A DNA stretch of 64,000 nt, from positions 4,137,109-4,201,108 of the forward strand of contig OY282380.1 of assembly GCA_958295885.1 (NCBI GenBank), given 5' to 3'. The notes below the pieces were generated by a model, which saw nothing but the letters and a program-made list of their open reading frames with translations, searched no databases and was not told the DNA's origin. The DNA comes from Arenicellales bacterium. Lineage in GTDB: Bacteria; Pseudomonadota; Gammaproteobacteria; Arenicellales; JAJDZL01. This document shows, piece after piece, positions 35,353 to 39,663 of the stretch (within the stretch, counting starts at the first letter, position 1; each line of letters begins with the position of its first letter). A program made the position numbers and the translations under genes.

Positions 35353-37104
35353 ATGAGAACACGGTTTATTTATAAGAGTCTACATGCTGCTTTTCTTCTC
35401 GTTGGTCAGATGAGACTGCAGTGTTCAGGCATGCGTAGTGGTGTCGTTGTGATGGCGGCCCTAACCGCGGCTCTGCTGATGTCTATGCCGGCGCGGTCAG
35501 ACTACGCCGCGGGACAGGAGGCCTGGGAAGCGGGTCGTATCGCCGAGGCGCTGTCAGAGTGGGAGGGCGCAGCCGCCGCGGGCGATGTTCGGGCGATGAT
35601 GACGCTTGGCCGGGCCTACCAGCGCGGGGTCGGCGCGCCGCAGGACTACATCTTGGCTCACTTCTGGTTCAACCTCGCAGCAAGCCAGGATGACTTTCGA
35701 GCGGCGGCGGAGCGCGATTCGCTGGCGGAGCTTATGTCCGTGGAGGAACAGGCGGAGGCGCGCAAGCTGTTGCGCGAGTGGCGCGGCAAAGTGCAACCGA
35801 CGGTAGAGGTCGACGTGCCGGATCCAGCACCGAGCGCAGCGGCACCCGACTTAAAACCGCCCCCGCCGCGCGCGATCAAGGAAGCGCAGTCGCTGCTCGC
35901 ACAGTTGGGCTACGCGCCCGGCCCGGCGGACGGAATTTGGGGAGGGCGTACGTCAGAGGCCTATCGGGCATTTTTGGGCGATGCCGACCTGCCTGCGGCC
36001 GAGACTTTGACACCGAAAGCCCTGCGCACCCTGCGCGAGATTTCCGCGCGCCAAGGCGAGGCGGGACAGTCTGAACAGACCGTAGCAACCCAAATACCGG
36101 CTGACGCTCTGCACCGGGCGGCGAAGGCTGGCGATCTCGATGGGCTACATGCATCTTTGGAGGCTGGGGCAGACATCAACCGGCTCGACAAACAGGGCTG
36201 GACAGCGCTGATGCATGCGGTAAACAAGGGTAACGTGTTAATTGTTGAAGGTTTGGTAGAAGCAGGTGCAGATCTGGATGTTCGAGCAGCGGATGGAGCA
36301 ACGGCTTTGTTCATGTCAGCGGTTCTAGGAGATCCGCAAATAGTCGCGCAGTTAATGAAAGCAGGCGCTGATATTTCCGTTCAAGGACCGAGGGGAAAGA
36401 CCGCGGTGGATGTTGCACGATTGACTTTTGGGGAAATCGATGCCGCAAGCGCGAACGACGCCGACCTTGCGGTTGTCGGGTTACAACGGGGACAAACGTG
36501 GAAAGAAACCCTGGCGTGGCAAAGCGCAGCAAAAGAGGCAGCAAAAGAGGCAGTAAAAAAGTTCGTCGCATCTTTCGGGCGCGAACCAACCGCGGACAAG
36601 GTGGACGAGTACGGTATGACGGATTTGCATTGGGCGGCAGTGACGAATTCAGCGGAGGTGGCAAAGCTGCTCATCGATCGTGGTGCCGATGTCAGCGTAA
36701 GGAACAGTTATGGTTTGACCCCGATGCACTCTGCGGCAGGGGGGAATTCAGCGGAGGTGGCGAAGCTGCTCATCAATCATGGTGCCGATGTCAGCGCAAG
36801 GGATTATTCTGATGAAACACCGTTGCACTCTGCTAATTCAGAGGAGGTGGCGAAGCTGCTCATCGATCGTGGCGCCGATGTCAGCGCAAGGGACAAATAT
36901 GGTTATACGCCGTTGCGCAACACAACTTCAGCGGAGGTGGCAAAGCTGCTCATCGATCATGGCGCCGATGTCAGCGTAAGGGACGATTCGCGTAAAAAAA
37001 CACCGCTGGAATTTGCAAAAGAATTTAATCACGAGGAAATGGTGACCTTTTTAAGCCAATTCAGGAAACGAATTGAAAACGGCTCCCAAAATTCTAACCG
37101 CTAG
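35353..37104 (+). CDS. Secreted Sel1-like repeat / peptidoglycan-binding (PG_binding_1) / ankyrin-repeat protein, paralogue 1
   Basis: The ATG at 35353 follows GGGAGA; an alternative ATG at 35431 gives the signal peptide MRSGVVVMAALTAALLMSMPARS|DYA. Sel1 unit: GDVRAMMTLGRAYQRGVGAPQDYILAHFWFNLAA. PG-binding unit: IKEAQSLLAQLGYAPGPADGIWGGRTSEAYRAFL. Ankyrin units: GWTALMHAV..., TPMHSAAGGNSAEVAKLLINHGADV... Confidence 0.85.
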   Translation: MRTRFIYKSLHAAFLLVGQMRLQCSGMRSGVVVMAALTAALLMSMPARSDYAAGQEAWEAGRIAEALSEWEGAAAAGDVRAMMTLGRAYQRGVGAPQDYILAHFWFNLAASQDDFRAAAERDSLAELMSVEEQAEARKLLREWRGKVQPTVEVDVPDPAPSAAAPDLKPPPPRAIKEAQSLLAQLGYAPGPADGIWGGRTSEAYRAFLGDADLPAAETLTPKALRTLREISARQGEAGQSEQTVATQIPADALHRAAKAGDLDGLHASLEAGADINRLDKQGWTALMHAVNKGNVLIVEGLVEAGADLDVRAADGATALFMSAVLGDPQIVAQLMKAGADISVQGPRGKTAVDVARLTFGEIDAASANDADLAVVGLQRGQTWKETLAWQSAAKEAAKEAVKKFVASFGREPTADKVDEYGMTDLHWAAVTNSAEVAKLLIDRGADVSVRNSYGLTPMHSAAGGNSAEVAKLLINHGADVSARDYSDETPLHSANSEEVAKLLIDRGADVSARDKYGYTPLRNTTSAEVAKLLIDHGADVSVRDDSRKKTPLEFAKEFNHEEMVTFLSQFRKRIENGSQNSNR

Positions 37105-37391
37105 CATTTGCAATTGGTTTTGGCATTTGTGAATTGTCTAAAGAACGATTAAGATACAACGGTGCGTCGATTGGCCTCGAAATCCCAGATTGATCAAACC
37201 AGCTTTGAAAAATTATGGGTGCGCTATGAAAGTTTGGATGTTTTCAGCGTAATTTGACAACAGTCGGAAATCATGAGATTCGTAGGCAAACTAGTTCAAA
37301 ATTGCAATTACAATCAACAGAATTTTGTCAAATCAGAAGACGATAAATTCATAGACTGCTATGCAGTTCAGCACCGGCTATCGGGAAATAC

Positions 37392-37727
37392 ATGCGGCAC
37401 GCAGAGCAGATGCTTGCCCAAACCAAGCACATTTCAACCACTAGTTTGACAGACAGTGCACTCTTCGCCGCTTTTCTTAGCCGAGTAACTTTGGGTTGTT
37501 TGAGAAAAACCTTGCAGAACCAGACATCGAACGCCTGCAAGACTGCGTTTCAATCGGAAATTTCTAAATGGGACCAAACTTACCGTTCAGCAATCGCGAG
37601 CGCGAAAGGATCAGCGGCTGCCTCCAGCTATGTCGACGAATTCGACCGAGATCCCGGCAGCTCGCAGTTTGTGCGAAACCTTGGGATACACATTTCCGGA
37701 GCGAGCCTCGATAGCTGCGGCGATTAG
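37392..37727 (+). CDS. Orphan copy of the C-terminal domain of the acidic repeat protein (duplication remnant; expression uncertain)
   Basis: 111 aa product. The last 48 residues (YRSAIASAKGSAAASSYVDEFDRDPGSSQFVRNLGIHISGASLDSCGD) are identical to the end of 33570..35324. The first roughly 60 aa are diverged. There is no signal peptide. Confidence 0.45.
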   Translation: MRHAEQMLAQTKHISTTSLTDSALFAAFLSRVTLGCLRKTLQNQTSNACKTAFQSEISKWDQTYRSAIASAKGSAAASSYVDEFDRDPGSSQFVRNLGIHISGASLDSCGD

Positions 37728-37755
37728 AAAATTGTTACAGTCTTGGGAGATAGGG

Positions 37756-39663
37756 ATGAGAACACGGTTTATTTATAATAGTCTACATACTGCTTTTCTT
37801 CTCATTGGTCAGATGAGACTGCAGTGTTCAGGCATGCGCAGTTGTGTCGTTGTGATGGCGTCCCTAACCGCGGCTCTGCTGATGTCGATGCCGGCGCGGT
37901 CGGATTACGCCGCGGGACAGGAGGCTTGGGAAGCGGGTCGTATCGCCGAGGCGCTGTCAGAGTGGGAGGGCGCAGCCGCCGCGGGCGATGTTCGGGCGAT
38001 GATGACGCTTGGCCGAGCCTACCAGCGCGGGGTCGGCGCGCCGCAGGACTACATCTTGGCTCACTTCTGGTTCAACCTCGCAGCAAGCCAGGATGACTTT
38101 CGAGCGGCGGCGGAGCGCGATTCGCTGGCGGAGCTTATGTCCGTGGAGGAACAGGCGGAGGCGCGCAAGCTGTTGCGCGAGTGGCGCGGCAAAGTGCAAC
38201 CGACGGTAGAGGTCGACGTGCCGGATCCAGCACCGAGCGCAGCGGCACCCGACTTAGGGCCGCCCCCGCCGCGCGCGATTAAGGAAGCGCAGTCGCTGCT
38301 CGCTCAGTTGGGCTACTCGCCCGGGCCGGCGGACGGATTTTGGGGAAAACGCACGTCAGAGGCCTATCGTGCGTTTTTGGGCGACGCCGAACTGCCAGTG
38401 ACCGAGACTTTGACACCGAAAACCCTGCGCATCCTGCGCGAGATTTCCGCGCGCCAAGGCGAGGCGGAACAGCCTGAACAGACCGTAGCAACCCAAATAC
38501 CGGCTGACGCACTGCACCGGGCGGCGAAGGCTAGCGATCTCGATGGGCTACATGCATCTTTGGAGGCTGGGGCAGACATCAACCGGCTCGACAAACAGGG
38601 CTGGACAGCGCTGATGCATGCGGTAAACAAGGGTAACGTGTTGATTGTTGAAGCTTTGGTAGAAGCAGGTGCAGATCTGGATGTTCGAGCAGCGGATGGA
38701 GCAACGGCTTTGTTCATGTCAGCGGTTCTAGGAGATCCGCAAATTGTCGCGCAGTTAATTAAAGCAGGCGCTGATATTTCCGTTCAAGGACCGAGGGGCA
38801 AAACAGCAGCGGATGTTGCACGATTGACTTTTGGGGAACTCGATGCCACCAGCGCGAACGACGCCGACCTTGCGGTTGTCGGGTTGCAACGGGGACAAAC
38901 GTGGGAAGAAACCCTGACGTGGCAAAGCGCAGCAAAAGAGGTAAAAGAGTTCGTTGCATTGTTCGGGCGTGAACCATCCGCGGACACATTGGACGAGAAC
39001 GGTTGGACGGATTTGCATTGGGCGGCTGTTTTGAACATGCCGAAATTGGCCAATGTGCTGATAGATGCAGGAATCAACATTTCAGTTGCAATCAAAGCGG
39101 ATGGCGAACCCTTCAGTGACCAGTTAATGGCAGATTTTTCGAAACTCTATGATGTGAACAGGGATGTTTTTTTGATTAGAAAGGGTCAGACGCCGATGTA
39201 CTCTGCGGCATTGAGAAATTCTGTGGAGGTGGCGAAGCTGCTCATCGACCATGGTGCCGATGTCAGCGTAAGGAACAAATACAAATATGGTTCGGCCCCG
39301 ATACACTCTGCGGCAGGGGGGAATTCAGTGGAGGTGGCAAAGCTGCTCATCGATCATGGTGCCGACGTCAGCGTAAGGAACAGTTATGGTTGGACCCCGA
39401 TGCACTCTGCGGCAGGGGGGAATTCAGTGGAGGTGGCAAAGCTGCTCATCGAGCATGGTGCCGACGTCAACGTAAGGAGCAATGATGGTCGAACACCGAT
39501 GCACTCTGCGGCATATTGGAATTCAGTGGAGGTGGCAAAGCTGCTCATCGATCATGGTGCCGACCTCAGCGTAAGGAACAATTCTGGTTATACACCGCTA
39601 CAATGGGCAAAACGATTCGACAAAGAGGAAATGGTGACCTTTTTAAGCCAATTCACGCAGTGA
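37756..39663 (+). CDS. Secreted Sel1-like repeat / peptidoglycan-binding / ankyrin-repeat protein, paralogue 2
   Basis: Same architecture as paralogue 1, with a near-identical N-terminal roughly 300 aa. The C-terminal ankyrin array differs in number and sequence of units (SAPIHSAAGGNSVEVAKLLIDHGADVSVRN...). Confidence 0.85.
   Translation: MRTRFIYNSLHTAFLLIGQMRLQCSGMRSCVVVMASLTAALLMSMPARSDYAAGQEAWEAGRIAEALSEWEGAAAAGDVRAMMTLGRAYQRGVGAPQDYILAHFWFNLAASQDDFRAAAERDSLAELMSVEEQAEARKLLREWRGKVQPTVEVDVPDPAPSAAAPDLGPPPPRAIKEAQSLLAQLGYSPGPADGFWGKRTSEAYRAFLGDAELPVTETLTPKTLRILREISARQGEAEQPEQTVATQIPADALHRAAKASDLDGLHASLEAGADINRLDKQGWTALMHAVNKGNVLIVEALVEAGADLDVRAADGATALFMSAVLGDPQIVAQLIKAGADISVQGPRGKTAADVARLTFGELDATSANDADLAVVGLQRGQTWEETLTWQSAAKEVKEFVALFGREPSADTLDENGWTDLHWAAVLNMPKLANVLIDAGINISVAIKADGEPFSDQLMADFSKLYDVNRDVFLIRKGQTPMYSAALRNSVEVAKLLIDHGADVSVRNKYKYGSAPIHSAAGGNSVEVAKLLIDHGADVSVRNSYGWTPMHSAAGGNSVEVAKLLIEHGADVNVRSNDGRTPMHSAAYWNSVEVAKLLIDHGADLSVRNNSGYTPLQWAKRFDKEEMVTFLSQFTQ

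Follow-up and report, generated by a model that had tools for sequence, protein, structure and literature searches.

The window analyzed here is a stretch of 64,000 nucleotides (nt) from an Arenicellales bacterium (GenBank assembly GCA_958295885.1, contig OY282380.1, positions 4,137,109 to 4,201,108 of the forward strand). Two open reading frames (ORFs) of the same strand in its central part, gene A and gene B, encode proteins in which a predicted signal peptide is followed by a Sel1-like repeat (SLR) module, a linker, a PG_binding_1 peptidoglycan-binding domain (PGB), a first block of ankyrin units and, after a spacer, another array of ankyrin repeats. An earlier note, made by a model from the nucleotide sequence, had drawn attention to these genes as two paralogous secreted proteins combining Sel1-like, peptidoglycan-binding and ankyrin repeats. 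A and B belong to a widespread, unnamed and horizontally mobile family of predicted envelope proteins; in this family, a conserved core is followed by an exchangeable, diversified tip. The genes, together with the upstream partner gene U, and their parts in the window are as follows (aa, amino acids).

33570-35324, plus strand: partner gene U, 584 aa, the ORF directly upstream of A.
34962-39891, plus strand: tandem duplication; unit 1 at ~34962-37361, unit 2 at ~37362-39891.
35353-37104, plus strand: gene A, 583 aa; signal peptide, SLR, linker, PG_binding_1, ankyrin block 1, spacer and a five-unit ankyrin array.
35353-35499, plus strand: A, N-terminal extension and Sec-type signal peptide; predicted cleavage between ARS and DY, after aa 49.
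35500-35790, plus strand: A, SLR module, aa 50-146; Pfam Sel1 at 28.3 bits and match of the family profile to Sel1-repeat structures.
35869-36045, plus strand: A, PG_binding_1, aa 173-231; Pfam 24.8 bits, cut-off 23.
36094-36435, plus strand: A, conserved ankyrin block 1 (three units and a cap), aa 248-361; Pfam and alignment.
36604-37104, plus strand: A, variable ankyrin array 2; five units, two of them shortened to 30 aa (90-nt period).
37362-37727, plus strand: duplicated remnant of the 3' end of U; only the C-domain, without signal peptide or N-domain.
37756-39663, plus strand: gene B, 635 aa; architecture as in A, with a second ankyrin array of six units.
37756-37902, plus strand: B, N-terminal extension and signal peptide, as in A.
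37903-38193, plus strand: B, SLR module; Pfam, family profile and structural model.
38272-38448, plus strand: B, PG_binding_1; Pfam 31.7 bits, three-helix bundle in the structural model, matches to wall-binding parts of PHROG endolysins.
38497-38838, plus strand: B, conserved ankyrin block 1; Pfam, structural model and alignment.
38995-39663, plus strand: B, variable ankyrin array 2; six units, with an insertion of ~30 aa in the first.

Every element that the earlier note had described, from the signal peptide through the SLR, the Pro/Ala linker and PG_binding_1 to the three-unit ankyrin block and the spacer, was recovered by Pfam searches, by profile comparison, in the AlphaFold2 (AF2) model or from the features of the leader, and the second array, for which four to six units had been proposed, has five units in A and six in B. 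The ankyrin families of Pfam match both proteins with E values of 1e-46 to 1e-70 (Ank_2, 7e-46 in A and 1.7e-69 in B). PG_binding_1 (PF01471) is matched above the cut-off of 23 bits at aa 174-227, with 24.8 bits in A (model positions 4-37 of 57) and 31.7 bits in B (positions 4-57), and the same region of the relatives scores 46-75 bits, with 54-75 bits in family members. The Sel1 assignment (PF08238) is upheld by homology even though the direct score falls below the threshold: the aligned homologues score 36-44 bits, above the Pfam cut-off of 30.7, and a profile of the N-terminal Sel1-PGB module (hereafter N-module) built from 18 relatives matches the solved SEL-1 repeat proteins 8sxq, 4bwr and 6ok3 with E values of 2.5e-38 to 3e-32, so the assignment can be considered secure.

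The AF2 model of B, built from a 50-sequence alignment (mean predicted local distance difference test, pLDDT, 86.6), agrees with this domain assignment in the SLR, the PGB bundle and the two ankyrin blocks. It contains SLR helix pairs at aa 2-121 (pLDDT 85-96), a disordered Pro/Ala linker, a three-helix bundle at the PGB (helices 146-158, 172-184 and 195-210 in M27 numbering; pLDDT 77-92), a second disordered linker, three to four helix pairs in ankyrin block 1, a helical spacer and the six units of array 2. When the whole model was used as the query, Foldseek returned ankyrin-B, ankyrin-1 and designed ankyrin repeat proteins (DARPins; E 1e-19), and this whole-protein search yielded nothing on the remaining domains. 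In array 2 of A, two units (36835-37014) have a period of 90 rather than 99 nt, three residues having been lost after the TPLH helix. The leader of both proteins consists of a basic n-region, a hydrophobic core (Kyte-Doolittle values up to 2.6) and A-R-S before D-Y, and a predicted A-x-A cleavage site before D-Y is kept across the family. The leader lacks a lipobox, no transmembrane-like window was found past aa 60 in either protein, and the mature proteins contain no cysteines.

Both ATG codons, at 35353 and 37756, are preceded by a GGGAG Shine-Dalgarno sequence. They are the likely starts because the 26-residue N-terminal extension (MRTRxI..LH.AFLLVGQMRL) is kept in the closest homologues of A and B, two of which lack the internal Met. 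A and B are tandem paralogues, 76% identical at the protein level overall and ~94% identical across the first 395 residues; the duplicated unit of ~2.4-2.6 kb includes, in each copy, the 3' end of U, the intergenic region and the family gene. The ratio of nonsynonymous to synonymous divergence (dN/dS) between A and B is 0.30 across the 368 shared codons, 0 in the Sel1 module and 0.19 in ankyrin block 1. Both copies are thus functional, with the core under purifying selection, and decay of one copy to a pseudogene is ruled out by this ratio and by the intact state of both ORFs. The remnant of U between A and B (37362-37727) shows a dN/dS of 1.03 overall when compared with U; nevertheless, the final 48 amino acids do not differ from those of U, and the changes in the last 60 aligned codons include ~5 synonymous ones. 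This tail may still be under constraint, either as a small ORF or as part of the regulatory region of B. Promoter and terminator scans around the cassette of U and the family genes gave matches at chance level only and are uninformative with regard to operon structure.

A full-length search yielded 913 matches; in 118 of the 120 that were listed, the similarity extends over the complete N-module, with an identity of at least 43%. The 123 proteins used for the family counts are listed matches of this search together with cluster members; the full core, that is, Sel1, PGB and ankyrin block 1, is present in 111 of them. Among these 111 core-bearing proteins, the core is combined with an FGE-sulfatase domain in 48, with a second ankyrin array in 44 and with neither in the remaining 19. 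When the 312-residue core was compared with 1.84 billion cluster representatives, 4146 matches were obtained at E <=1e-30, and the best 150 of these representatives include at least 62 distinct 50%-identity clusters with an uninterrupted match over the full core. The earlier note did not recognize the architecture as a described family, and this stands: the matches in NCBIfam, Pfam and PADLOC are generic ones below threshold or concern single domains, none of the three collections has a curated family for it, and our literature search found no paper describing a Sel1-PGB-ankyrin architecture. The architecture is no rarity, however: the family is large (111 of 123 proteins and at least 62 clusters with the full core), though unnamed.

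Ankyrin and Sel1 proteins of the "eukaryote-like" type are a standard genomic signature of sponge and amoeba symbionts, and the earlier note had pointed to this connection. The survey of architectures and genomes that it had proposed identified 494 loci encoding an N-module relative (one genome per species), with the core present in metagenome-assembled genomes (MAGs) of at least five phyla (Alphaproteobacteria, Gammaproteobacteria including Arenicellales, Candidatus Binatia, Chloroflexi, Gemmatimonadota and Thermodesulfobacteriota). The relatives come overwhelmingly from MAGs, and the cultured genera Halomonas and Kiloniella encode only Sel1-PGB proteins without ankyrin repeats. The symbiont link is therefore plausible on account of this MAG-dominated distribution, which includes bins from the sponge Ircinia ramosa; a sponge origin is confirmed for those SB066x bins only. 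One further contig has a ROBB21 label, read here as a study tag, and the many MAGs with UUID names presumably stem from aquatic symbiosis projects as well. A scan of viral contigs gave only generic Sel1 matches, to residues ~4-107 of the module, and no family member, so a phage-borne origin is unsupported.

The division of these proteins into a conserved core and an exchangeable tip is apparent from a 50-sequence alignment, in which the mean consensus fraction is 0.69 for Sel1, 0.70 for the PGB and 0.70 for ankyrin block 1, compared with 0.33-0.36 for the linkers and 0.44 for the second ankyrin array. The motifs GWTALMHA, DGATALFM and GxxGKTA, which belong to the hairpins and first helices of block 1, show little or no variation. 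Judging from this pattern, ankyrin block 1 is part of the conserved core and the second array alone is the variable payload. The payloads found behind the core are an ankyrin array, an FGE-sulfatase domain, a second PGB, or FGE together with TonB_C; a 998-aa relative (P0032) with ankyrin arrays and a caspase-like peptidase domain (PF00656) in a precomputed domain list represents a further payload type. The N-module of B is 62-65% identical to that of 856-aa FGE-type proteins and ~43% identical to that of some ankyrin-type members. Core similarity does not track payload type and, therefore, the payloads have been swapped repeatedly. Within the ankyrin payload, the alignment of 20 in-register array-2 repeats from A, B and close relatives reveals an almost invariant framework, NSxEVAKLLIxHGADV, and entropy peaks at repeat positions 20-22, 24, 29, 32 and 33, which lie in the tip of the hairpin and where helix 1 ends. 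These canonical target-contact positions correspond to those randomized in designed ankyrin binders.

Three sister genes of A and B are targets of diversity-generating retroelements (DGRs). In a Candidatus Binatia MAG (locus L004), the last 125 nt of a Sel1-PGB-Ank-FGE gene have their counterpart in a repeat located 5 kb upstream; 16 of the 18 mismatches between this template repeat (TR) and the variable repeat (VR) fall at TR adenines, and the TR lies at the end of a reverse-transcriptase gene (RVT_1). A second family gene of the same genome (L060) has a remote VR that matches the L004 template; a single template thus supplies at least two remote family genes (L004 and L060) and, probably, a stand-alone FGE gene (L004, 6-818) as well. 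In a Thermodesulfobacteriota MAG (L014), the family gene is followed by a small ORF, a reverse-transcriptase gene (RVT_1) and a TR, with 16 of 21 mismatches at TR adenines. Finally, a complete DGR, consisting of an SH3_3+FGE target, bAvd, RVT_1 and a TR, is located directly upstream of an ankyrin-type member in an alphaproteobacterial MAG (L006). The DGRs, which are complete in all three MAGs, occupy the following positions:

L004, 1408-2547 and 2356-2480.
L014, 7635-9518.
L006, 1124-4881.

Furthermore, 34 FGE-type C-termini show the arrangement RGGSW...GFRVARTLTP with variable positions in between, which is typical of variable regions. The FGE/C-type-lectin fold is the classic ligand-binding fold diversified by DGRs (PMC5758913, PMC7159879). 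Among the closest known systems are the TvpA-class variable proteins with FGE-sulfatase/C-type-lectin domains (category b of Wu et al., 2018; PMC5758913): the sisters, which share the entire A/B core at 55-65% identity, end in an FGE-sulfatase domain whose last ~120 nt are the variable region, served by a TR and a reverse transcriptase, and the likeness consists in a constant scaffold that carries a diversified binding tip. By contrast, A and B have ankyrin arrays instead of the lectin domain, and the text of the survey by Wu et al. (PMC5758913) does not refer to N-terminal parts of the ankyrin, Sel1 or peptidoglycan-binding type. A DGR in the window was considered and rejected: the window has no adenine-biased TR/VR repeat pair, there is no DGR-type reverse transcriptase among the ORFs scanned, and the only trace of a retroelement is a group II intron RNA fragment (46847-47063). 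In the window, the diversity of the tips arises from recombination of repeats and genes and not from a DGR.

Contig L091, from a near-identical strain, is colinear with the window from amiB to a UvrD-like helicase gene and carries a single family gene with eight repeats in one copy of the unit that is duplicated in the window, where the window has two genes with five and six repeats. The contig and the window compare as follows (dS, synonymous divergence):

Flanking genes: 99.3-99.9% nucleotide identity, dS 0.004-0.018.
U, whole gene: 96.3% nucleotide identity, dS 0.058.
U, N-domain: dS 0.013, as in the flanks.
U, C-domain: dS 0.108.
Family core: 95.3% nucleotide identity, dS 0.09-0.11, dN/dS 0.27-0.37 (0.11 in block 1).
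Second array: ~76% nucleotide identity, alignable only in part.

Because synonymous divergence is raised from inside U through the family gene or genes, this segment appears to have been replaced by recombination; the replaced segment and the duplicated unit of the window begin in the same part of U. Between near-identical strains, divergence and changes in copy number are concentrated at the cassette.

The cassette lies between dctQM and dctP of a tripartite ATP-independent periplasmic (TRAP) transporter, and its GC content is 0.52-0.58 compared with ~0.48 for the window. Its neighbors, apart from U, which has no known domain, are the TRAP transporter genes and a CoA-transferase gene. Family cassettes elsewhere have differing flanks, with IS1595 and DDE_Tnp_1 transposases nearby. 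These observations bear on the possibility that A and B are housekeeping envelope scaffolds, in which SLR, PGB and ankyrin repeats organize a conserved periplasmic complex, as in the periplasmic domain of PodJ or in MotX/MotY, and the variation of array 2 is neutral repeat instability. The family profile indeed also matches MotX and AlgK, the core evolves under purifying selection, and Sel1 and PGB occur at the ends of long Rhizobiales proteins (L051, L066 and L070-L074), which match the N-module at their C-terminal ends with ~32-39% identity and which we take to be PodJ-like, PodJ being an alphaproteobacterial polarity factor. PodJ-type ends have the Sel1 repeat, the linker and PG_binding_1 in the same order as A and B; however, in A and B this module is N-terminal and is followed by the ankyrin blocks, and the two proteins have neither a cytoplasmic coiled coil nor a membrane span, only a predicted cleavable leader. 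The differing genomic contexts, the raised GC content and a copy number that varies between near-identical strains do not fit a housekeeping role, nor do the active hypermutation of sister genes by DGRs and the concentration of variation at binding positions, where an even spread would be expected, and we regard this explanation as very improbable.

Gene U encodes a signal peptide, an N-domain with six cysteines (aa 20-121), an acidic disordered middle part, a coiled coil and a helical, Cys-containing C-domain. The protein has 13 cysteines, and its 124 Asp and Glu residues compare with 45 Lys and Arg; an internal duplication of 399 nt is represented by 33918-34217 and 34317-34616 (87% identical). 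No family was found for U in Pfam, PHROG, NCBIfam or PADLOC, and the AF2 model (mean pLDDT 60) is confident at both ends only, including the helical C-domain. The N-domain recurs at 65-70% identity in many SH3_3 or DUF4189 proteins; a relationship of U to the SH3_3+FGE target of the DGR in L006 is ruled out since the two are not similar. Homologues of U are located ~100 nt upstream of family genes at five loci (L080, L081, L082, L083 and L091), which differ in their flanks and in which transposases are frequent; L081 carries an FGE-type member, and L083 has a tandem pair of family genes, both with U upstream. For 10 of the 44 U homologues, the longest contig has the same length as for a family match, which suggests a location on the same contigs. 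Weaker U-like genes precede family genes in L004, L005 and L020 (Binatia and gammaproteobacterial MAGs), and L011 encodes a family protein to whose C-terminus the U C-domain is joined. In L014, the family gene targeted by the DGR is directly preceded by the gene of a 337-aa ankyrin-only protein (4832-5845), at the place that U has at other loci. These features make U a predicted secreted, acidic, Cys-rich and conserved neighbor that forms a cassette with the family genes.

The interpretation that we favor, on a slight balance of probability, is that A and B are Sec-exported, murein-tethered scaffolds which present a fast-diversifying binding module to foreign proteins. The proteins would be exported by Sec and their leader cleaved before D-Y, whereupon the PGB domain, helped by the SLR module, would hold them non-covalently on murein; in a presumably diderm gammaproteobacterium, the tethered proteins would be periplasmic. 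The TonB_C and second-PGB payloads of sister proteins likewise have a periplasmic flavor. The invariant ankyrin block 1 may dock a conserved partner, for which the C-domain of U is a candidate, a natural fusion of this domain with a family protein being present in L011. The variable array 2 would capture changing foreign proteins that reach the wall. Given that murein lies under the outer membrane in diderm bacteria, the array would not be displayed to the host without envelope breach or release, so host proteins, from the sponge or its phagocytes, would be met after breach of the outer membrane in the phagosome or after release of the protein. The picture drawn in the earlier note, of a host-protein-binding array tethered to the wall, thus needs a further step and is supported in part only. 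Host proteins are our first choice of ligand because of a precedent with signal-peptide ankyrin proteins of sponge phages: according to the Ankyphage preprint, the expression of ANKp in E. coli, or its addition to these bacteria, reduces their phagocytosis as well as inflammatory signalling.

The same proteins lend themselves to a different explanation, namely, that A and B are freely secreted eukaryote-like effectors, released by type II secretion, in vesicles or by lysis, whose arrays manipulate host proteins while the PGB and SLR bind free muropeptides or the walls of other cells, for example masking these from host receptors; this amounts to the idea of the earlier note with the tether removed. 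The combination of ankyrin arrays with a signal peptide resembles ANKp, and the Ankyphage preprint cites work on the ankyrin proteins of a gammaproteobacterium that lives in sponges; the relatives in symbiont MAGs of several phyla and the Cys-free mature proteins with their flexible linkers also suit such a role. The ankyrin proteins of sponge symbionts and ANKp are linked to sponge microbiomes, as is the A/B family, and share with A and B the signal peptide and the ankyrin repeats, being a loose functional group rather than a sequence family. They differ in that the ANKp-type proteins are described in the preprint with signal peptides and ankyrin repeats only, no Sel1 or PG_binding_1 anchor being mentioned, and in that no member of the A/B family was found in the viral contigs scanned. 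Three observations argue against free secretion: the cassette has no genes of a secretion system beside it, TonB_C and similar payloads of the sisters are devices of the periplasm, and the core is conserved in the manner of a structural anchor, including the PGB, which is also a wall-binding module of endolysins. We consider this explanation quite unlikely.

For a murein-tethered protein, defense within the periplasm has to be considered as well; in this case, the variable module would neutralize, at the very place where they act, agents that other microbes direct at the wall, namely muramidases or amidases delivered by type VI secretion systems or as bacteriocins, phage tail lysins, or phage ejection proteins. 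The lack of a lipobox in the Sec leader, the tether by the PGB, and sisters with TonB_C or a second PGB as payload all suit the periplasm, and hypervariation by DGRs, along with the strain-level turnover of array 2 and of copy number, is what would be expected of an arms race with phages or competitors. Ankyrin domains are, moreover, listed among the immunity proteins of polymorphic toxin systems, and there is a precedent in Bd3460 of Bdellovibrio, a periplasmic ankyrin protein for self-protection that acts on the cell's own DD-endopeptidases and thus inhibits murein hydrolases (PMC4686830). Bd3460 resembles A and B, as read here, in being an exported ankyrin protein of the periplasm; unlike them, it is small, stands alone and is encoded beside its endopeptidase target, whereas A and B have no such neighbor and carry a predicted murein anchor of their own. 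Against periplasmic defense, no toxin, lysin or secretion-system gene adjoins the cassette in the window, in L080-L083 or in L091, the PADLOC matches are to generic ankyrin only, the viral contigs yielded nothing beyond generic Sel1 matches, and the family is concentrated in symbiont MAGs instead of being spread generally among bacteria. All things considered, this explanation appears unlikely.

Several points weigh against the murein-tethered scaffold with host ligands. A tether to murein beneath the outer membrane argues against direct contact with host proteins, and the hypervariation is explained no less well by an arms race in which the periplasm is defended against phages or competitors; DGR-diversified lectins, for their part, are usually thought to be displayed at the surface, which is a poor fit to the periplasm. 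Murein binding, periplasmic retention and cleavage of the leader are deduced from domains and sequence features, and on the side of the domains the PG_binding_1 match in A is only partial and the Sel1 scores of A (28.3 bits) and B (28.7 bits) are slightly short of the Pfam cut-off. In part, the pattern of variation in array 2 could be due to concerted evolution and recombination, with no selection for new specificities involved. Similarly, the raised synonymous divergence between the window and L091 points to replacement of alleles by recombination and not to positive selection in place, and the strain comparison is based on this one close pair. As for the proposed partner, U was detected beside only a subset of the family genes, and its AF2 model has no PDB neighbor with E <1.

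Two further groups of known proteins share parts with A and B. The ankyrin effectors of the Legionella Dot/Icm system (AnkY, AnkH and others) have ankyrin arrays in common with them and provide their best NCBIfam matches. These NF0430xx models score 100-149 bits (best, 123.7 and 149.1) against a cut-off of 600, with only the repeats matching, and A and B differ from the effectors by their N-terminal Sec leader. The region aa 146-264 of B matches the PG_binding_1-containing parts of endolysin families in PHROG, that is, the wall-binding modules of phage endolysins; A and B, however, lack a catalytic lysin domain.

Elsewhere in the window, the gene order orn, queG, nnr, tsaE-like, amiB/C, mutL, miaA, hflX, hflK is typical of Gammaproteobacteria; the block from nnr to hflK occupies 18844-28123, and amiB/C, which is 10 kb from the cassette, lies inside this conserved housekeeping block. 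No tRNA or rRNA gene was found in the window. Dispersed intergenic repeats of 130-220 nt, 70-96% identical and present in both orientations, could be similar to miniature inverted-repeat transposable elements or to repetitive extragenic palindromes. They are located at 2333-2717, 6985-7376, 26017-26145, 40428-40597, 40783-40927, 45380-45574 and 55606-55800, and two of them are found at the right border of the cassette, in the interval from B to dctP. Two segments of the window are absent from L091. The first, of ~0.9 kb (46234-47132), contains the match to domains D1-D4 of a group II intron (RF02005, 134.5 bits, 46847-47063, minus strand) and no ORF of 150 aa or more, so the intron may be a fragment. 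The second, of 1.75 kb (49120-50868), carries an IS110-family transposase gene (49419-50684), and its insertion point is inside the 3' end of the UvrD/PcrA-like helicase gene, which in the window encodes only 545 aa and matches just the N-terminal part of helicase models.

What is new in this family is an unnamed but abundant combination of known kinds of protein, the eukaryote-like repeat proteins and the variable binders of the DGR type. To our knowledge, almost no ankyrin or Sel1 protein of the eukaryote-like kind from a symbiont has a defined location or mode of action. The family provides a concrete handle in the form of a searchable 312-residue core, a predicted murein address and a conserved partner gene, and it makes the targets of the arrays, the site of binding and the opponents concerned accessible to direct tests. 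Its tip is diversified by two independent routes, and mutagenesis by DGRs is accepted as evidence for the binding of changing ligands; the family thereby links two fields that have been unconnected, those of the eukaryote-like repeat proteins of symbionts and of diversity-generating retroelements. The strain-level turnover makes the cassette a useful marker of ongoing conflict in symbiont populations. A more far-reaching proposal, which we put forward as speculative and rather doubtful, is that the Sel1-PGB-ankyrin core defines an unrecognized class of murein-tethered hypervariable periplasmic receptors, in which the scaffold and U would reside on the sacculus and the tip, diversified by DGRs in the lectin form or by recombination in the ankyrin form, would intercept foreign proteins that get past the outer membrane, such as lytic factors of phages, competitors or the host. 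If this is the case, such receptors would constitute an envelope-resident, anticipatory binding repertoire that is shared horizontally among unrelated symbionts of one host niche.

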